The notes under the pieces were generated by a model. The model was not told the origin of the DNA, made no database searches, and saw nothing but the letters and a program-made list of their open reading frames with translations. 32,000 nt of DNA from Geobacteraceae bacterium GWC2_53_11 (GTDB lineage Bacteria > Desulfobacterota > Desulfuromonadia > Geobacterales > Pseudopelobacteraceae): the NCBI GenBank assembly GCA_001802645.1, contig MGZJ01000061.1, positions 24,522 to 56,521 of the forward strand. The letters run 5' to 3'. Below are positions 5,368 through 32,000 of the stretch, one piece after another; the first letter of the stretch is position 1; every line of letters begins with the position of its first letter. A program made the translations under genes and the position numbers.

Positions 5368-7092
5368 ATGTCAAAAAAAGCGATAAAACCTTCACTGAAG
5401 AACCCGTTTGCACCCCGGGAAACCGTTGAATTTACCATTCCCGGCGAGATTCCGGGCAAGAAGGGGGGCTATGAAGAGGCGATGAAGGAAGGTCATGACC
5501 TGATCCAGCGTCCCGTCAAGTCGGTCAGTATTGCCCAGATTGAAAAACAGCATTTCAAAAAACGTATGACCGTGTGGGAGCGAATCCGTGTCCTGACGGA
5601 AAACGATCCCAATATCCTCTTTCAGAACTGGGGCAAGAATCTTGACGGCGCTTCTCTGGTGACTGGCATCCTTAATGTCAATGGACGCGATGTCGCTGTT
5701 TATGGCCACGACTTTACCGTGCGAGCCGGTTCCATCGATGCTACTAACGGTCGCAAGTTAGCCCTTCTGTTCCAGATGGCAGGCGAAAAAGGTATTCCGC
5801 TGATTGGTATGAACGACTCTGCCGGCGCATTTGTACCAGCAGGTGTCGGTGGTCTGGACGGTTATGCCGAAGCATTTACGGCACTCCGTAAAATCAGCGG
5901 CGTTGTACCATCCATCATGTGCATGTTCGGCTTCAATGCCGGTGGCGGCAGCTATCTTCCGCGTCAGGGTAGCTTCCTGATTCAGCCGCAGGACACTTTT
6001 TTCGGCCTGACCGGTCCGGGTGTCGTCAAGACCGTTCTGGGTGAAGATGTCACTCCTGAAGAGCTGGGTGGACCGAAAGTACACGGACAGTCAGGCGTTG
6101 CCGATATGACTGTGGAAGATGAGGTCGATGCTCTGCGTACGGCGCTGCAGCTGCTCTCTTATCTCCCAGACAACAACAGTGTTGCGCCCCGTTTCCGTGA
6201 GACGACCGATCCACTGGATAGAAAAACCTGGGAGATCAACACGCTGCTCAAAAAAGCCTTTAACTCGCCGACCGGGTTTAATACCCCGTTTGACGTGTCA
6301 ATCATGATCCAGCAGATCTGCGATCATGGGGACTATTTTGAGCTTCAGCGTGACCGTGCCCGCGAGGCAGTGACCGCTCTCGGCCGTTTGGGCGGCAATG
6401 TCGTCGGATTCGTGGCCAACAACAGTGCCGTTGCCTCCGGTCAGATTACCGTGGATTCGGCTTACAAGATTGCCCGCTTCAACCGTTTTTGCAATATTTA
6501 CAATATCCCCATGATCTTCATGGAAGACACGACCGGCTTCCTGCCGGGCAAGGAACAGGAAGGACGCGGCATCGTACAGGCCGGTCGCGCCATGCTGGAT
6601 TCCATCGTTGATATCAGAACGCCGCGTATCCTGCTGATCATCCGCAACGCTTACGGCGGGGCATATGCTTCATACAACAACTATCCTACCGGCGCTGACC
6701 TGGTATTGGCACTCCCAACTACGCGTCTTGCGGTTATGGGGCCTGCTGGTAAGGAATTTGTCTACAAGGACGAAGTGCGCAAGATTCGTGCATCGGCTGC
6801 CGAGCGGGTAAAAACCGGCACGCAGGAGCGCGTTGCAGCCGGTATGTCTCCTGGCGAGGCCAAAATAGATGCCGAAAAGGATGCCGCAGATTGGTTGAAA
6901 ATAGAAGATACGGCATTAAATCAGCGCTATGAAAAAGAACTTATGAATCCGAAAGAGGGCCTGGCACTGGGTTCTATCTCCTCCCTCGTTATGCCCACCG
7001 ACCTGCGCAAGGTGCTGGGTGAAAACATGAACTTCTTCCTGCGTCACTACAAGCCGGGTCCGATGCAGGGTGTTCAGCGCGAGTTCCATTAA
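5368..7092 (+). CDS. Acyl-CoA carboxyltransferase (PccB/12S-like, fused alpha+beta CT domains), probably specific for propionyl-CoA/methylmalonyl-CoA
   Basis: Two crotonase-fold carboxyltransferase halves are visible ([34 protein letters not shown] and [35 protein letters not shown]). The ORF track starts at 5359, but the GGAAGG RBS at 5353..5358 fits the ATG at 5368 better. Confidence 0.88.
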
Positions 7093-24518: not shown

Positions 24519-26336
24519 TTACATCTCCACTCTGGTAACAACTCCCTGTAGCTTGGCAGCAGGGAGTTTGTTGAATTGTACGAAGTTTGGCGTCAGTTTT
24601 TTGATCAGGGCAAAGACCTTCCAGATCGGGTTCCTGGTCTCAATATCCTCGATGCCGTAAAAGATTACCTTTTCCTTGATGCCGTTGTCGGTAAGCAGTT
24701 TTTCGATATCCAGCACTTCCATGTAGCCGGCATTCACCTCGAAGAATTCGAGGCCGGTGCCCACATCCTTCTTGTGATGGCAGGAGACTTCAAAGGGATC
24801 GTCGGTGCGGACGATGGAGATGAAGATGTTGCGTTCGTAAATGATGTTGGAGCGAATCACGCAATGAACGATATAGGGGGGGATCACGTCCAGCCCCTTG
24901 AGGAAGAAGAGCGCCGTGCCGGCAATATGCCCCTTGGCGTAGATCTGCTCGTAGGAGAGCATGAATATTTCAAGCTCCAGCGGCCGCAACGCCTTGTAGA
25001 GGGAGCGCTGGCCGTTGGTCCAGATCAGGATGGTGGCAAAGGGCAGCGACGCCAGGATGAGCGACCAGTAGGCGCCGTGCGGGAACTTGGAGAACGTGGA
25101 GGTGAAGTACACAACGTCTATCATGGCGATTATCACGACAATCGGCACTTTCCATTTTTTCGTCGTTCGTGAAAAGACCATGATCATCATGAGCGCCGTT
25201 ATGGTCATGGAGCCGGTGACTGCCATGCCGTAAGCCGCAGCCAGGTTGCCGGACTTCTGGAAGAAGAACATGACGAAAATAACCGCCACCATCAGGGTCC
25301 AGTTGACCGCGCCGATGTAAATCTGGGACTGGATATGGCTGGAGGTGTAGTCGACCTTGAACAGCGGCATCAGGCGGGTGGTGATCCCCTGGTAGACGAT
25401 GGAGAATACGCCGCTGATGATAGATTGGGACGCTATGATGGTGGCCATGATCGTCAACAGCAAAAACGGGATATAGAGGAGTGCCGACTGGCTCTGAATC
25501 ATGGCAAAGAGGATGTTCTTTGCCTCGGGGTTGCGCAGGATAAACGCTCCCTGGCCGAGGTAGTTAAGGTACAGCGCCGCAAAGACGAAGTACCAAGCCC
25601 GGATGATCGGCTTCTTGCCGAGATGTCCCATGTCGGCATAGAGGGCTTCGCCGCCGGTGGAACAGAGGATAACCTCGGAAAGGACGATGTAGCCGGCAAA
25701 ACCGTTCTGGCGGAAAAACTCGAAGGCATGCCACGGGTTAATGGCCGAGATTATCTCAGGAGTGCCGGAGATGGAAGCGACCCCTGATACGAGCAGCGAG
25801 CCGAAATAGACGATCATGATCGGCCCGAAGATGCGGGCAACCTTGTCGGTACCGCGTGACTGGAAGAAAAAGAGGGTAAAGGCAATCAGGGCGGCAATGA
25901 AAACCAGCACCGACTGTTTGGTTGCGGCTAGCGAGGGGATGAGAAGGAGGCCTTCAACCGCAGAGAGGATCGAGATGGCTGGGGTGATAACGCCGTCGCC
26001 GAGCAGCAGGGAAACGCCGAGAAACGAGAGAAATCCCGCAAAGGCAAGCACGCGCCCCTTTTTGAAGAGTTTAATGATGATTTCCCGGAGGACGATCTCA
26101 CCCCCTTGCCCTTTTTTGCCAAGACTCATGGCTAGCCAGGCGTATTCCGCCGTCACCAGGATGGTCATGGTCCAGAAAATCAGGGAAAGGATGCCGTAAA
26201 CGTTGGCAACGGTCGGTTTTGTCATGGCAAAGACTACAGTCAGGGTATAGATGGGGCTCGTGCCGATATCGCCGAACACCAGGCCAAGGGCCTTGACGAT
26301 GCCGCCCCAGAAGGAGTCTTCGTGTTTTTGGGTCAT
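24519..26336 (-). CDS. kup: KUP/HAK/KT-family potassium uptake protein, downstream copy
   Basis: The conserved N-terminus LGLVFGDIGTSPIYT is present, with ~12 hydrophobic segments and a cytoplasmic C-terminal domain. The ATG at 26336 (MTQKHED..) aligns with the paralog's start. The track's extension to 26447 overlaps the upstream gene's stop. Confidence 0.93.
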   Translation of the reverse strand: MTQKHEDSFWGGIVKALGLVFGDIGTSPIYTLTVVFAMTKPTVANVYGILSLIFWTMTILVTAEYAWLAMSLGKKGQGGEIVLREIIIKLFKKGRVLAFAGFLSFLGVSLLLGDGVITPAISILSAVEGLLLIPSLAATKQSVLVFIAALIAFTLFFFQSRGTDKVARIFGPIMIVYFGSLLVSGVASISGTPEIISAINPWHAFEFFRQNGFAGYIVLSEVILCSTGGEALYADMGHLGKKPIIRAWYFVFAALYLNYLGQGAFILRNPEAKNILFAMIQSQSALLYIPFLLLTIMATIIASQSIISGVFSIVYQGITTRLMPLFKVDYTSSHIQSQIYIGAVNWTLMVAVIFVMFFFQKSGNLAAAYGMAVTGSMTITALMMIMVFSRTTKKWKVPIVVIIAMIDVVYFTSTFSKFPHGAYWSLILASLPFATILIWTNGQRSLYKALRPLELEIFMLSYEQIYAKGHIAGTALFFLKGLDVIPPYIVHCVIRSNIIYERNIFISIVRTDDPFEVSCHHKKDVGTGLEFFEVNAGYMEVLDIEKLLTDNGIKEKVIFYGIEDIETRNPIWKVFALIKKLTPNFVQFNKLPAAKLQGVVTRVEM

Positions 26337-26349
26337 GCTTTCCGCCTTT

Positions 26350-26377
26350 AAAAAGTAAAGGCGGCATTTCTGCCGCC
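26350..26377 (-). terminator. Terminator-like hairpin between the two kup genes
   Basis: The minus strand reads GGCGGCA-GAAA-TGCCGCC followed by TTTACTTTTT. Confidence 0.5.
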
Positions 26378-26421
26378 CCCGCTTATACACCATTTCGGAA
26401 GTCATTGTCACCAGAAGAGTA

Positions 26422-28242
26422 CTACATCTCGACCCTCGTGACCACACCCTGTAGCTTTGCAGCAGGCAGTTTGTTGAACTGTACGAAGTTCGGCGTCTGG
26501 CGCTTGATGGTGGAGAACAGTTTCCAGAAAATGTTGTTGGTCTCGATATCCTCGATGCCGTAGAAAATTACCTTTTCCGTAATGCCGTTATTTTTAAGGA
26601 CACTTTCAATATCCAGTATCTCCATGTAACCGGCGCGTACCTCAATGGCGTCAAGACCTGCTGCCATACCGGTTGTAAGTTTGGTTTCCAGTCCGTAAGG
26701 TTCGTCGGTGCGGACGATGGAAATCAGCACGTTGCGCTCGTAAATAATGTTTGAGCGGATAATGCAATGAACCAGATAGGGCGGGATGACGCTCCACTCT
26801 TTGACAAAGAAAAGGCAAGTCCCCGGGATATTTCTGTCCTTGGCGTAGATCTGGCCGTAGGCAAGTTCGAATGTTTCGAAATCTAGTGGTTTAAGTGCCT
26901 GATAAAGTGCCCGCTGCCCTTTGGTCCAGACCATGATAGTAACAAAAGGAACCGATGCAAGAATAATCGACCAATATCCACCGTGAGGGAATTTGTTGAG
27001 GTTGGCGATCAAAAACACCAGGTCGGCCAGAGTGACCAGCAGGGCAACCGGTACCTTCCATTTTTTTGTCGTATGGGCAAATATCATGGTCATCATGATA
27101 CCGGTAATGGTCATGGTGCCGGTTACGGCAAGACCGTAAGCCGCCGCCAGATTCTCCGATTTGCGGAAGACGATCATGATCATGATGACCGCTGCCAGCA
27201 ATGCCCAGTTTATGGAGCTTATGTATATTTGCGATTTCAGGTGCGTTGAGGTGTAGTCAACTCTGAGAAGCGGCAGAATTCGAGTGGTGATCCCCTGGTA
27301 GACGATTGAAAAGACACCGCTGATCAAGGCTTGTGACGCAATTACCGTGGCAATTATGGTCAGGATCAGGAAGGGGATGTAGAGAATGGCCGCTTCGTGG
27401 CGAACCATGCCGAACAGGATGTTCTTTGCGTCCGGGTGGGTGATGATGTACGCGCCCTGACCCAAATAGTTGATTACCAGCGCTACGAATACGAAATACC
27501 AGGCACGGACGATCGGCCTGCGGCCCAGATGACCCATGTCGGCATAGAGTGCCTCGCCGCCGGTCGCACAGAGGATCACCTCGGAGAGAACAAAGAAACC
27601 TGCCAGGCCGTTATCATACAGGAATCTGGCGGCGTACCAGGGGCTCAGCGCCTTGAGGACAACGGGGTGGTCGATGATCGAGAATGCTCCGGACAGCGTC
27701 AGGGCGATGAACCAAACGACCATCAGCGGGCCGAAGGCGCGCGCCACCTTATCGGTTCCCTTGCTCTGAAATATGAAGAGTCCGACCGCAATTATGGCGG
27801 CAATGAGGATCAGAATGTTTTCAGAGGTATGTTCCAGGCCGGGTATCAATTCAATACCCTCTACCGCCGAGAGGATCGAAATGGCTGGGGTGATGACGCC
27901 GTCGCCGATCAGCAGGCAGATGCCGACGTAGGAAAGAAAGGTAACGAAGGCAAAAGTTCTTCCCGGTTTGATCATTCTGACGAGAATTTCGCGCAGAACG
28001 ATGGTGCCGCCTTCGCCTTTACGCCCCAGACTCATGGCCAGCCAGGCGTATTCGACCATTACCAGGGTGATCAGGGTCCAGACAATCAGGGAGATGATGC
28101 CGTAGATGCTTTCCTGGGAAGGTTTGGTGAGGGTGACGATGACGGTGAGGGTGTAGATTGGGCTGGTGCCGATATCCCCGAATACCAGTCCCAGGGCCTT
28201 GATGATGCCGCCCCAATAGGAACCTGCTTCATGTTGCTTCAT
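26422..28242 (-). CDS. kup: KUP/HAK/KT-family potassium uptake protein, upstream copy controlled by the riboswitch
   Basis: It shares family motifs with the downstream copy (LGLVFGDIGTSPIYT, GGEALYADMGHLG). The ATG at 28242 is preceded by an AGGAGG RBS at 28248..28253 (minus strand). Confidence 0.93.
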   Translation of the reverse strand: MKQHEAGSYWGGIIKALGLVFGDIGTSPIYTLTVIVTLTKPSQESIYGIISLIVWTLITLVMVEYAWLAMSLGRKGEGGTIVLREILVRMIKPGRTFAFVTFLSYVGICLLIGDGVITPAISILSAVEGIELIPGLEHTSENILILIAAIIAVGLFIFQSKGTDKVARAFGPLMVVWFIALTLSGAFSIIDHPVVLKALSPWYAARFLYDNGLAGFFVLSEVILCATGGEALYADMGHLGRRPIVRAWYFVFVALVINYLGQGAYIITHPDAKNILFGMVRHEAAILYIPFLILTIIATVIASQALISGVFSIVYQGITTRILPLLRVDYTSTHLKSQIYISSINWALLAAVIMIMIVFRKSENLAAAYGLAVTGTMTITGIMMTMIFAHTTKKWKVPVALLVTLADLVFLIANLNKFPHGGYWSIILASVPFVTIMVWTKGQRALYQALKPLDFETFELAYGQIYAKDRNIPGTCLFFVKEWSVIPPYLVHCIIRSNIIYERNVLISIVRTDEPYGLETKLTTGMAAGLDAIEVRAGYMEILDIESVLKNNGITEKVIFYGIEDIETNNIFWKLFSTIKRQTPNFVQFNKLPAAKLQGVVTRVEM

Positions 28243-28280
28243 TGATGCCTCCTGCAAAAGTGCTTGTAGGGGCTGACAAC

Positions 28281-28316
28281 CGGAAAAAGGAAAAACCGCC
28301 GGCATGAACCGGCGGT
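28281..28316 (-). terminator. Intrinsic terminator forming the expression platform of the c-di-AMP riboswitch
   Basis: The minus strand reads ACCGCCGG-TTCATG-CCGGCGGT followed by TTTTTCCTTTTTCC. It lies ~40 nt upstream of the kup RBS. Confidence 0.85.
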
Positions 28317-28330
28317 CTGAATCCGCTGTT

Positions 28331-28466
28331 GTGCCCTTCCAGGTGCCTACGAGGTTAGCTGACGGGCTCGGGATTGGAAGTTCCCTATCCGGTGGTTATC
28401 CGGAATGCGCCCCAGTTGATCGGGTCCCCCGTATCCGTCCTTTGCGGACGAATCTCGGCTGCTTGT
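28331..28466 (-). promoter_or_regulatory. c-di-AMP riboswitch aptamer (ydaO/yuaA, kimA class)
   Basis: The minus strand contains the conserved ydaO cores ACGGGGGACCCGA (28420..28432), CUGGGGCGCAUUCC, and CCCGAGCCCGUCAGCUAACCUCGUAGGC (28345..28372). These nearly match the B. subtilis ydaO leader as I recall it (GCGGGGGACCCA, UGGGGUGAAUCC, CCCGAACCCGUCAGCUAACCUCGUAAGC). A candidate pseudoknot pairs CUUCC (28376..28380) with GGAAG (28336..28340). Confidence 0.85.
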
Positions 28467-28472
28467 GCGGTT

Positions 28473-28500
28473 GTTATACTCCTCCTGATTTCGCTGTCAA
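28473..28500 (-). promoter_or_regulatory. Candidate sigma70 promoter driving the riboswitch and kup: -35 TTGACA (28495..28500), 16-nt spacer, -10 TATAAC (28473..28478)
   Basis: The hexamers were read on the minus strand. The position is appropriate, just 5' of the aptamer. Confidence 0.6.
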
Positions 28501-28583: not shown

Positions 28584-28862
28584 ATGAAGATACGTATGGA
28601 CAATACGAATATTGAGCAAAAGCAGGATGCGATGATCTGCCGTTATTTCAAAGTGGCCCACCGTGATATGGTCTTCCTCAAGTTTATCCTGGAAGCGTAT
28701 GAGGGGATGAACGTCATGAGTACTGTTGATAACAAGGCTGGTATCATCCGGATCGCCATCATGCGTGGCTTTTTGGATGATATGGATCGGCTGCTCGCAG
28801 AGCTTGGAGAGCAGGTGGTGATGGAACCGGTGGAGTGGCATGATGAATCCTGTACCTACTGA
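28584..28862 (+). CDS. Small (~92 aa) conserved hypothetical protein, DUF4911-like
   Basis: The ATG at 28584 is preceded by GAGCGAGG. The core FLKFILEAYEGMNVMSTVD..GIIRI resembles my recollection of the DUF4911 family found in deltaproteobacteria. The track's upstream extension covers the antisense strand of the riboswitch and promoter and is rejected. Confidence 0.55.
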   Translation: MKIRMDNTNIEQKQDAMICRYFKVAHRDMVFLKFILEAYEGMNVMSTVDNKAGIIRIAIMRGFLDDMDRLLAELGEQVVMEPVEWHDESCTY

Positions 28863-30081
28863 AACCGGTCAACGTGGTGCCCGTTACGCGCTTGCCCTGC
28901 TGCTGACGGTCAATCTGCTGAATTATGTTGACCGTCAGACGCTCTATGCCGTTTTTCCACTCATAAAGGCGGATTTGCACCTCTCCGATGCCGGACTCGG
29001 CTTTCTGGGAAGTGCCTTCATGTTCAGTTACATGCTGGCCGCCCCGGTTTTTGGCCGGCTGGGGGATCGAGCCAATAGGGCCCATCTTGCGGCGGGCGGT
29101 CTGGCTGTCTGGAGCGTAGCGACGATACTTTCCGGCATGGCTACATCATACCGGATGTTGCTGTCAGCACGAGCGCTGGTAGGGGTGGGGGAAGCCAGCT
29201 TTGGCACAGTGTCGCCCGGTCTGCTGGCAGATTATTTTCCCCGTGAACGCCGCGGCCGTATGTTGTCGCTCTTCTTTTTGGCAATTCCGGTCGGCAGTGC
29301 TTTGGGATATATTCTGGGGGGACAGCTTGGGCAGGCATTCGGCTGGCAGCGGGCTTTTCTGCTCGTCGGGTTGCCCGGACTCCTTCTGGCCGTACCGCTT
29401 TACCTTCTGTACGAGCCTCGCCGGAGCGACCATGCTGTTTCGCGTCAGCATGAACGGCTCATGCCGCAATTGCGACGTTTTTGGCAGAACCGCACCTATG
29501 TTCACGCCACGTTTTCGATGGCTGCCATGACCTTTGCGCTGGGAGGCCTGGCTCAGTGGGCTCCCTCTTTCCTGCAGCGCTCGTTTGGTCTTGAAGTTGC
29601 CCGCGGTAATACCATTTTCGGGATCATCACGGTCGTTTCCGGCATTCTCGGTACTCTGGCGGGAGGATGGCTGGGGGATTGGTTTCAGCGCCGGAATGCC
29701 GCCGGCTATCTCTATGTATCCGCAGTCGGGTTTTTGGCTGGGGCGCCGCTGATGATGATTGCCCTGACAACTTCCAACCTGACGATCTGTCTTGCCGCTA
29801 TTTTTTCTGCCGAATTATTCCTGTTTCTGAATACCGGACCACTCAATACCGTTCTCGTGAACGTCGTGTCGCCCGGTCAGCGGGCCATGGGGTTTGCTAT
29901 TAATATTTTTGCCATTCACGCCCTGGGGGACGCCATATCTCCGGCCATCATCGGCTTCCTCTCGGATCGGTGGGGATTGGCCCATGCACTGCTGATTACA
30001 CCTTTGGCGGTGCTGCTTGCAGCCGGTTTTGCTCTCTGGGGAGTACGCTTCCTGGTTGGTGGCCAGCAGGCGCCGGAGTAA
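28840..30081 (+). CDS. Major facilitator superfamily transporter (Spinster-like/MFS_1)
   Basis: The 413-aa protein has ~12 predicted TM helices and the MFS loop 2-3 motif GRLGDRANR, with a second-half repeat. It overlaps the preceding small gene by 23 nt. Confidence 0.88.
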   Translation: MMNPVPTETGQRGARYALALLLTVNLLNYVDRQTLYAVFPLIKADLHLSDAGLGFLGSAFMFSYMLAAPVFGRLGDRANRAHLAAGGLAVWSVATILSGMATSYRMLLSARALVGVGEASFGTVSPGLLADYFPRERRGRMLSLFFLAIPVGSALGYILGGQLGQAFGWQRAFLLVGLPGLLLAVPLYLLYEPRRSDHAVSRQHERLMPQLRRFWQNRTYVHATFSMAAMTFALGGLAQWAPSFLQRSFGLEVARGNTIFGIITVVSGILGTLAGGWLGDWFQRRNAAGYLYVSAVGFLAGAPLMMIALTTSNLTICLAAIFSAELFLFLNTGPLNTVLVNVVSPGQRAMGFAINIFAIHALGDAISPAIIGFLSDRWGLAHALLITPLAVLLAAGFALWGVRFLVGGQQAPE

Positions 30082-30142: not shown

Positions 30143-31336
30143 TCAAGTGCCGCCATGATGTGCCGTGTTCAACCCGGTTTCCGGTTTCGTCGGTATGCCG
30201 GTTTTCGGGTCATTGTCAGCCATGCCGACGGCGATGGTGAAGCTGAACGATTCTCCGGGGCGAAGTGTCCGCGGCCCCCATTGCATGCCGATGAAACGGT
30301 TGGTTGGGCTTACGAGGGGCATGGGCCTGGGGCCATGCGTGGTTCCGCCGCTGAAGTTTGAAACATACGCCCTGTCGGGACGGGTGTTCCTGTCCCATTC
30401 GATGAAGTTGGCTATGCCGCTGAAAGAGTGCGTCTCGTCGGCAAGGGGATTGCCGTTGTCAAACATACCGATGAACGTATCGCGCTGAACATTCACCTCC
30501 CGTTCCGCAAGCAGCAATTCATGTTCCATCCACCCCACGTCTCCTGCCGAAGATCCAAAATTTCCAACCCATGGTTCGTCACCGTACAGATACTGGATGG
30601 TTGTCGGGGTGGTCCCCCTGTTGGTAATTTCGGTTGCTAAAATGACATATTTGTTTCCGGCGCGGTAGAAGAGTACTCTGTTCAAATCCAGCGGCACACC
30701 GGCTAATGCCAGATGATGCCTGCTTTCAATGGTCAGGTTGGAACCGTCATTTTCCCGGACCCAGCTCCCCTTGAATTCCCAGTCAGATGGGTAGCTTGGC
30801 AGAAACGGGGCGGAGGGTGACACTATGCCCTCGTTGACATTGCACCAGACGTGAAACCAGCGCTGGCCGTTAAAATAGGTCATGCCCGTGGCTTCATTAT
30901 TCATGAACTGGTAGTCGGGGTCGGAGGGGGGAAGCCCGCCTCCGATAAAAAGACCGGAGGGGTATTTGCCATTACTTTCCCTGAAACGTCCGAGATTAAT
31001 GATTATTTTGCGGCCATCGCGCCAGCTGTTCCTGATGAATCCGCGTCCTTTTTTCTTGTTCCAGCGGAAATCAAGGCAAAAATCATGGGTCAGATCGCAT
31101 TTGGGTGATTCCACGATATTTCTAAAGGGGAAGAGAAGCTTCCCCCACAGCAGGCGGTGGGCGTCCTCTGGTGTCAGGTCGTCAGTAAGTTCAAACCAGG
31201 CACCCTTTTCCCCTTCGAGTATGAACAAGCCTTCCACTTCATGATGAAAGCTGATTGTTATGTTGGCATAAAGTAAGGCTGAGCAGCAGAGTGTGACTGC
31301 AATGGCAAGAATGAGTTTGTGGCGCATGTTTCTCAT
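30143..31336 (-). CDS. Membrane-anchored or exported protein of unknown function (~397 aa)
   Basis: The N-terminal signal/anchor is MRNMRHKLILAIAVTLCCSALLYA. I recognise no family motifs. The ATG at 31336 overlaps the upstream gene's TGA (ATGA). The track's extension to 31417 lies inside the upstream gene. Confidence 0.7.
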   Translation of the reverse strand: MRNMRHKLILAIAVTLCCSALLYANITISFHHEVEGLFILEGEKGAWFELTDDLTPEDAHRLLWGKLLFPFRNIVESPKCDLTHDFCLDFRWNKKKGRGFIRNSWRDGRKIIINLGRFRESNGKYPSGLFIGGGLPPSDPDYQFMNNEATGMTYFNGQRWFHVWCNVNEGIVSPSAPFLPSYPSDWEFKGSWVRENDGSNLTIESRHHLALAGVPLDLNRVLFYRAGNKYVILATEITNRGTTPTTIQYLYGDEPWVGNFGSSAGDVGWMEHELLLAEREVNVQRDTFIGMFDNGNPLADETHSFSGIANFIEWDRNTRPDRAYVSNFSGGTTHGPRPMPLVSPTNRFIGMQWGPRTLRPGESFSFTIAVGMADNDPKTGIPTKPETGLNTAHHGGT

Positions 31337-32000
31337 CCGGAAGTGACCTCGATCCGTAACCCCTGCCCGGCGCCGGATATGTAGATGAATGTGAGCGGCA
31401 GAGGGTTGCTTCCCCACGGCTCGCTACGGTAGTCGTGGCTGAATGTGCAGCGGAAGGCTTTGACCCGGCTGCCAGGAGGTATATCGAGCCCTTCCGGAAG
31501 TTCTTTGCGTCCCGGCCAACTGCATTCTGTCTGGTGTGCCTCTGCAAACGACGGCAACTTACCCATCAACGGCATCTCGCTGCTGCAGTAGTCGAAGAAA
31601 AGAGCATCGTACAGCAGGTGCCGGTCCGATTCGGGAAGGAGTGTTTCGGAAAGACGGGCAAATAGCTCAAAAACGCGGCGGCTGGAGAGGCTCGAGAGGT
31701 TTTCGTTTCCTGCCTGCCGGGCCATCCGGTCAAGTGCCGTGGACAGCGTGCCATGACTCAGTAAGACGTGAAATGCCGCCCTGAACCCGCCCTGTTTGTT
31801 GAACAGGTCGAGTAGTCTCCCGATCGTTTCGACCCGGCAGATATCATCATAAGAAAGCCATGGGTTGCGTAAAATCGTGTAGGGTGGGGCTTCTGAAAAT
31901 AAATATCCCTCCTGCTCGCCGATTTTACGCATTGGTGAGCCCTTCAGCAGTTTGAGCGGTTCGATCTGGATGTCATGGGGCTGCAGGCTGGCAACCGTAT
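31333..32000 (-). CDS. C-terminal part of a DUF4080-containing (B12-binding-type) radical SAM protein; N-terminus lies outside the window
   Basis: The frame stays open upstream of the listed Met to the window edge (..TVASLQPHDIQIEPLKLLKGSPMRKIG..). The pattern EPLKLLKGSP...PPYTILRNPWLSYDDI..IGRLLDLFNKQGGF resembles the linker and DUF4080 tail of B12-binding radical SAM enzymes. This is recalled similarity, not a search result. Confidence 0.65.
   Translation of the reverse strand, partial: TVASLQPHDIQIEPLKLLKGSPMRKIGEQEGYLFSEAPPYTILRNPWLSYDDICRVETIGRLLDLFNKQGGFRAAFHVLLSHGTLSTALDRMARQAGNENLSSLSSRRVFELFARLSETLLPESDRHLLYDALFFDYCSSEMPLMGKLPSFAEAHQTECSWPGRKELPEGLDIPPGSRVKAFRCTFSHDYRSEPWGSNPLPLTFIYISGAGQGLRIEVTSG

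Follow-up and report, generated by a model that had tools for sequence, protein, structure and literature searches.

Does a riboswitch govern the potassium transporter gene kup1 of Geobacteraceae bacterium GWC2_53_11, and if it does, in which direction does it act and how far downstream does its control reach? The question is raised by the kup1 leader, which lies on the minus strand of a 32,000-nucleotide stretch of contig MGZJ01000061.1 (the window, whose own numbering is used throughout). An earlier note on this DNA, made from the letters alone, had proposed a ydaO-class riboswitch for cyclic di-AMP (c-di-AMP) in front of a tandem pair of KUP-family K+ transporter genes. In our analysis, the kup mRNA leader very probably carries a standard c-di-AMP riboswitch, which would act as a transcriptional OFF switch on kup1. 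The leader holds a member of this riboswitch class, together with a conserved promoter, a conserved terminator and a kup gene context. According to the reading that we favour, a sigma-70-type promoter (TTGACA-16-TATAAC) would start the leader transcript at about position 28466, and the first ~140 nucleotides (nt) would fold into the ydaO-class aptamer, whose seven helices form two similar halves and which is completed by a CUUCC/GGAAG pseudoknot. At high c-di-AMP, the ligand-bound aptamer would let a hairpin and its U-run (28318..28284) terminate transcription before kup1. At low c-di-AMP, RNA polymerase would read through, and the K+ importer would be made.

Class, fold and probable ligand of the aptamer

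The class of the element was examined with covariance models. RF00379 (the c-di-AMP riboswitch, or ydaO/yuaA leader), the model that the earlier note had suggested as a check, matched the minus strand at 28470..28329 with 80.1 bits and an E-value of 2.6e-17, well above the gathering score of 38. This match covers model positions 1-134 of 134, i.e. the full length of the model, and it was the sole above-threshold match in a scan of the whole window with Rfam 15. The three core strings on which the original assignment had leaned, ACGGGGGACCCGA, CUGGGGCGCAUUCC and CCCGAGCCCGUCAGCUAACCUCGUAGGC, all fall within the matched interval. The conserved core nucleotides of the class (ACGGGGGA-CC, GGGG-G-AU, UAGGG and CCCG-CAGCUAACCUCG-AGGC) were found as a complete set. 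With covariation added to the covariance-model match, 28329..28470 on the minus strand was annotated as the c-di-AMP riboswitch aptamer, and the ydaO-class proposal was thus borne out.

The fold was then compared across 33 orthologous sequences. In this alignment, whose fitting to the model somewhat favours structure, the Rfam fold together with the CUUCC/GGAAG pseudoknot was paired in 94.7% of the cells, as against 30-51% in controls with slid positions. Both-sided changes occurred at 13 pairs of the aptamer fold, and none of 500 shuffles matched the observed values, so that the seven-helix nested fold has covariation support. The pseudoknot joins the loop of the last aptamer hairpin (5' strand CUUCC, 28376..28380) to the 3' tail of the aptamer (3' strand GGAAG, 28340..28336). 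It had been put forward as a candidate, and it turned out to be the pseudoknot of the class, which sits outside the nested structure line of Rfam. Its helix was 99.4% paired, with one pair changing from CG to UA in 4 sequences and from CG to UG in 7.

These observations bear on the alternative that the resemblance to RF00379 arose by chance or is a decayed remnant with no regulatory function. An E-value of 2.6e-17 speaks against chance, and the aptamer, promoter and terminator have been kept with compensatory substitutions over 33 loci from several phyla. The covariation effectively refutes this alternative, to which we give next to no credence. As judged from its sequence, the element is a genuine, well-conserved and ordinary member of a known riboswitch class.

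A repeated G-AUUC motif within the leader had also been pointed out, occurring as GAGAUUC at 28456..28450, GCGCAUUC at 28410..28403 and GCGGAUUC at 28326..28319. For the first two occurrences, the proposed fit to the pseudo-twofold symmetry of the class held, since the two units align with the two halves of the RF00379 model: GAGAUUC, a hairpin and GAUACGGGGGACC in one, GCGCAUUC, a hairpin and GAUAGGGAAC in the other. By sequence, these two units of GA-AUUC, hairpin and GAUA(C)GGG are the known internal pseudo-two-fold repeat of the class. The third occurrence had been taken as a sign that the terminator stem mimics an aptamer helix. Orthologs keep only GCGGA at this site and continue with CAAAG, TATGT, GAGAT and other bases; the UUC is specific to the window, and we rejected the mimicry, which finds no comparative support.

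A member of the class would be expected to bind c-di-AMP, and the class is reported to do so at the picomolar level, with K+ transporters as one of its main gene associations (PMC7266159). The aptamer of the window deviates from the Rfam consensus at three junction positions: GAA is changed to GAG in J1/2, UGAAU to CGCAU in J5/6, and GAACCCG to GAGCCCG. We therefore considered whether the ydaO fold senses another ligand in this lineage, e.g. a different cyclic dinucleotide. A precedent exists in Geobacter, where variants of the GEMM-I riboswitch have switched their specificity to cyclic GMP-AMP (cGAMP; cited in PMC5888326). Against this, the same variants are frequent in 74 diverse environmental c-di-AMP aptamers that were retrieved by core pattern (nAG-CCCG in 60 of the 74, GCCGAG in ~30%). 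Moreover, the J5/6 position varies among C, U and A within the kup clade itself, which argues against a fixed determinant of specificity; the score exceeds the family threshold by a wide margin; and a K+ importer is a classic target of c-di-AMP. We found no sign of a specificity change, and on the frequencies of natural variants a different ligand is very improbable and was ruled out as a candidate.

Promoter, terminator and direction of the switch

Upstream of the aptamer, the promoter described in the earlier note was found as a sigma-70-type element at 28473..28500 on the minus strand, with the -35 box TTGACA at 28500..28495, a 16-nt spacer and the -10 box TATAAC at 28478..28473. TTGACA-16-TATAAC is the only match in the window at no more than one mismatch, with 0.14 expected by chance, and is not significant when taken alone. 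A scan for consensus promoters omits TATAAC, since it demands a T at the last position of the -10 box. The weight of this promoter comes from its conserved position in orthologs and not from match statistics alone: 29 of 31 orthologous loci have TTGAC no more than 60 nt upstream of the aptamer, at 30-36 nt in most of them, with GTATAA(C/A) after it. Transcription is predicted from the sequence to start near 28466.

As a side observation, a divergent pair of genes, encoding a DUF4911 protein of 88 amino acids (aa) and an MFS transporter, occupies 28596..30081 on the plus strand and starts ~95 nt from the kup promoter. The region between this pair and kup probably holds two back-to-back promoters. 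The MFS neighbour is common to three related loci (L001, L006 and L008; related loci are referred to by L numbers where they need to be told apart).

Downstream of the aptamer, an intrinsic terminator at 28284..28318 was recognized by terminator scan, folding and conservation. Its core reads ACCGCCGG-TTCATG-CCGGCGGT (28316..28295) followed by TTTTCCTTTTT, or, as RNA, ACCGCCGG-UUCAUG-CCGGCGGU followed by UUUUCCUUUUU. The hairpin (28318..28293) has 11 pairs, 7 of them GC, with a folding energy of -29.9 kcal/mol (z = -4.7), and by sequence the hairpin and U-run have the features of an intrinsic, Rho-independent terminator. The element ends 41 nt before the Shine-Dalgarno (SD) sequence AGGAGG, in agreement with the textbook terminator about 40 nt before the kup ribosome-binding site that had been described. 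A hairpin followed by a run of at least 4 U was found 3' of the aptamer in 31 of the 33 aligned leaders, which comprise 32 loci and the window. The stem sequence varies by clade (ACCGCCGG.., ACGUCGUUGGC.., AGCCGCAGG.. or ACCGCUG..) with the hairpin kept, suggesting selection on structure, and compensatory changes in the stem were seen inside a close clade.

In which direction would such a leader respond to its ligand? The 5' arm of the terminator begins outside the aptamer, 19 nt past the pseudoknot strand, and this lack of overlap makes an ON design unlikely. A second indication comes from one of the related loci, L011, whose aptamer (5857..6003) ends 2 nt before the kup ATG. This locus has neither the terminator nor the SD hairpin described below, and the 3' strand of its pseudoknot, GGAAGG, is found 7 nt ahead of the kup AUG, i.e. 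at SD distance. Because the same GGAAGG takes part in the pseudoknot and would act as the SD, the SD would be masked once the ligand is bound. Provided that its assembly is correct, L011 would represent an independent natural translational-OFF design with the same aptamer and the same gene. Experimental precedents point the same way: OFF termination upon c-di-AMP binding has been demonstrated for the kdp riboswitch of Bacillus thuringiensis (PMC6488665), and the OFF logic of the B. subtilis kimA and ktrAB leaders was established by experiment (PMC5575661). On the strength of the L011 variant and of OFF termination in the B. thuringiensis kdp and B. subtilis leaders, we infer that high c-di-AMP would terminate the leader transcript before kup1. 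The OFF logic expected in the earlier note thus stands as the best reading, in keeping with the position of the terminator, with L011 and with the Bacillus precedents; a convincing antiterminator did not emerge.

Three observations weigh against this picture. First, nascent transcripts stopping short of the 3' arm of the terminator were folded in search of a strong antiterminator, and only partners of 4-6 base pairs (bp) were found. In these folds, the 5' arm of the terminator paired mostly with a pre-terminator segment that we call X (GGGCACAACAGCGGA, 28322..28336, with the conserved box GGGCnnGACAGCGGA) and secondarily with the 5' strand of helix P1. The pairing with X, an alternative use of its GCGG, involves CCGC of the terminator 5' arm here and 5-6 bp in other clades. 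Second, no diadenylate cyclase (DAC) gene was found in the window, and a motif scan detected no DAC signature in 967 kb of related DNA. Deltaproteobacteria often carry diadenylate cyclase genes, according to statements made at the level of the class (PMC7288161; PMC5575661). Third, the SD lies inside a conserved hairpin, leaving room for translational gating beyond the simple model. A pairing between GGAAGG and the U-tract, proposed by RNAalifold, was discarded as a candidate; it is weak and rich in G-U pairs, and it forms only after the termination decision.

The Shine-Dalgarno hairpin and the reach of control

The conserved SD hairpin raises the possibility that control is mainly or additionally translational. 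The SD (28253..28248) lies 5 nt before the AUG of kup1 (ATG at 28242), within a candidate SD-sequestering hairpin, GCCCCU-A-CAAG / CACU / UUUG-C-AGG-A-GGC, at 28247..28273 on the minus strand. This hairpin was recognized by folds and compensatory changes, one of its pairs showing both-sided changes in 8 sequences, and the modelled probability that the SD is unpaired is ~0.2-0.5. A conserved post-terminator segment, Y (CCGGUUGUCAGCCC, 28270..28283), may form a long-range helix with segment X, in which X would be the 5' half and Y the 3' half. Y was delineated by conservation, duplex energies and the minimum-free-energy fold, and its GCCC(CU) doubles as the anti-SD strand. In the translational alternative, the anti-SD GCCCCU would lock the SD, and in read-through transcripts X (GGGC..ACAGCGGA) would pair with Y (..GUUGUCAGCCC) and free the SD.

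Several comparisons favour such a layer. The SD hairpin has been kept with compensatory changes. The X:Y duplex is found in all 18 close leaders, and with flexible register its mean energy was -18.0 kcal/mol for native pairs of segments as against -16.4 kcal/mol for segments swapped between genomes (permutation p = 0.0004), native duplex energies being lower than those of shuffles by ~2.5 standard deviations. With the register fixed, 76.9% of the cells were paired, compared with 30-52% in slid controls. Masking X slightly lowered the modelled SD accessibility (from 0.40 to 0.33, p = 0.03), and L011, with the same aptamer and gene, would be a purely translational platform. On the other hand, partition-function modelling of 23 leaders detected no ligand-dependent masking of the SD: accessibility showed no systematic difference between the free and the aptamer-locked states (0.34 vs 0.40, p = 0.43), which provides no link to the ligand. 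Covariation of X:Y in the fixed register was weak as well, with 22-107 of 500 shuffles equalling it, and the canonical conserved terminator already accounts for regulation. Overall, we regard translational control as unlikely. The same low standing applies to a composite platform in which the terminator would be nested in the X:Y helix and the Y strand would double as anti-SD, giving a two-tier switch of termination and translation. Were the two-tier design true, related genomes would display the same aptamer and gene with swappable outputs: a terminator, an SD within the pseudoknot (L011) or control by KdpDE.

We now return to the transcriptional OFF switch and ask how much it controls. The window carries two transporter genes behind the leader, both on the minus strand. 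kup1 (26422..28242) encodes 606 aa with matches to the Pfam domains K_trans (3.1e-158) and K_trans_C (1.6e-20), and kup2 (24519..26336) encodes 605 aa with matches to K_trans (5.4e-155) and K_trans_C (8.3e-24). The presence of both domains in both products agrees with the KUP-family target that had been proposed, and the two have the features of KUP/HAK/KT family members, for which K+ transport is predicted. By BLASTP, kup2 is 65% identical to kup1. Its start is the ATG at 26336 and not the GTG at 26447, and a 605-aa gene was also called at this position in L081.

The earlier note had implied that the tandem pair is one regulated unit. The two genes share a strand, with 85 nt between them, and their tandem order is kept in the closest relatives, as would be expected if the riboswitch governed kup1 and kup2 as a single operon. 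The spacer between them does not fit this arrangement well. At 26351..26411 on the minus strand, terminator scan, sequence and conservation identified the promoter-like boxes GTGACA (26411..26406) and TATAAG (26387..26382), with an 18-nt spacer, and after them a GC hairpin (26380..26357) and a T-run. The boxes and hairpin are conserved over the tandem loci L001-L008, L011, L012, L019, L020 and L044, and in L003, L004 and L008 the hairpin and 8 or more T make up a perfect terminator. The T-run in the window itself is interrupted (TTTACTTTTT), and some read-through into kup2 is therefore plausible. Further evidence against the operon is that the spacer has been maintained in the riboswitch-free loci L003, L005, L019 and L020, and that the conserved GTGACA-18-TATAAG lies just upstream of the hairpin. 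A start ~7 nt past the -10 box would fall inside the 5' arm of the hairpin, so transcripts initiated at these boxes would contain only part of that arm and escape the terminator, and those arriving from upstream would stop. The arrangement suggests a kup1 terminator that is bypassed by a kup2-specific promoter. We consider a single operon a minority possibility. On the best reading kup1 would be the gene directly controlled by the riboswitch, and kup2, which is probably transcribed from a promoter of its own behind the kup1 terminator, would be at most partly riboswitch-controlled.

Distribution of the leader and comparison with known systems

How widely is this leader shared? A covariance model built from five leaders was run on 80 related loci and found the aptamer in 32 of them at E < 1e-27; Rfam added L022, giving 33 of the 80. 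In all 33 loci the aptamer lies upstream of a kup gene, and in L066 the gene behind it is the kup1-like copy, with the matched kup2-like copy farther downstream. A 58.5-kb contig from a groundwater metagenome carries Kup1 in identical form, and the orthologs of kup1 are 60-96% identical in Geobacterales and related lineages. The nearest genomes (identity up to 96%) are metagenome-assembled genomes (MAGs) of Geobacteraceae/Geobacter, Pelobacteraceae and Desulfuromonadaceae, in line with the deltaproteobacterial context that had been named, and Syntrophales and Nitrospirota are farther away. Among the loci with aptamer and kup are those of a Thermodesulfovibrionia MAG (L077), a Poribacteria MAG (L080) and a cultivable relative, Trichlorobacter thiogenes (L028). 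The match added by Rfam, in Geobacter sp. OR-1 (5643..5912 of L022), spans 270 nt with 54 bits and has an insertion of ~130 nt relative to the other aptamers. Among the environmental aptamers, K_trans follows 3 of 60; other downstream genes encode transporters of the amino-acid-permease type as well as peptidoglycan hydrolases and binding proteins. This gene set matches the published regulon, of which kup is a minor but regular member.

Some close kup homologues are not preceded by the riboswitch. Homologues 76-91% identical to kup1 lie riboswitch-free directly downstream of kdpB-kdpC-kdpD-kdpE in L005 (135..5845), L013, L019, L020 and L024; this set includes close homologues with 90-91% identity, and the kup gene of L003 probably has the same position. 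The alternation between riboswitch and kdpDE is not strict, as the order in L015 and L048 is kdpE, riboswitch, kup. Two further observations were made at these loci. TCTTGAT direct repeats ~11 nt apart precede the -35 box upstream of kup in L005, L010, L019 and L020, and the MAG SOY_65_metabat_437 carries both kinds of locus (L013 and L074).

The remaining contents of the window include a topoisomerase gene, genes of the methylmalonyl-CoA pathway, parAB and the ATP synthase operon, and no gene of c-di-AMP metabolism was found in the window. An open reading frame of 424 aa (30143..31417, minus strand) without a Pfam match, which is called as a gene on the source contig too, is flanked by the divergent MFS transporter gene and a radical-SAM/DUF4080 gene, and the closest relative, L001, has no counterpart at that position. 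In a Nitrospirae MAG (L076, 10573..10760), a cobalamin riboswitch (RF00174, 120.5 bits) was found ~2.8 kb downstream of a kup homolog and is unrelated to the present element.

The value of these results lies largely in annotation: an uncultured, groundwater, Geobacteraceae-like bacterium and ~30 related genomes place Kup under a c-di-AMP riboswitch. The kup leaders are consistent with c-di-AMP as a general regulator of K+ homeostasis outside Firmicutes. The comparative set, with its terminator-type platforms, one variant with the SD in the pseudoknot and close kup homologues behind kdpDE, could also be used as a compact natural experiment on the swapping of platforms and regulators around one orthologous transporter gene.

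The novelty once attached to this locus, as a case for extending the link between c-di-AMP and K+ homeostasis to the lineage, was overstated. As summarized by Wang et al. 2019 (PMC6488665) from Nelson et al. 2013 and Block et al. 2010, c-di-AMP riboswitches have been predicted in the 5' untranslated regions of ktr, trk, kdp and kup transcripts in phyla including Proteobacteria. Within the limits of that summary, the leader described here shares its class, gene association and phylum with the predicted kup-associated riboswitches. In addition, KimA (YdaO) is itself classed in the KUP family (PMC10284832). The class, ligand, OFF mechanism and kup association are all already published, and the locus opens no new question.

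A second comparison concerns kdpFABC of B. thuringiensis, for which Wang et al. 2019 (PMC6488665) describe the riboswitch and KdpDE as alternative means of regulation. Similarly, related kup genes here lie behind either the riboswitch or kdpDE. The difference is that the target is kup, and that the alternation is broken by the two loci with kdpE, riboswitch and kup in a row. A parallel in architecture is offered by the kimA (ydaO) and ktrAB (yuaA) leaders of B. subtilis, the founding members of RF00379. The aptamer belongs to the same family with a full-length match, the target is likewise a K+ importer, and the aptamer is followed by an intrinsic terminator with OFF logic (PMC5575661), which for the Geobacter-like leader is read from sequence. 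By contrast with the B. subtilis leaders, the present one serves a canonical Kup with K_trans and K_trans_C in a Gram-negative, Geobacter-like host, and it also has a conserved SD hairpin and, possibly, a helix formed by the segments on either side of the terminator.

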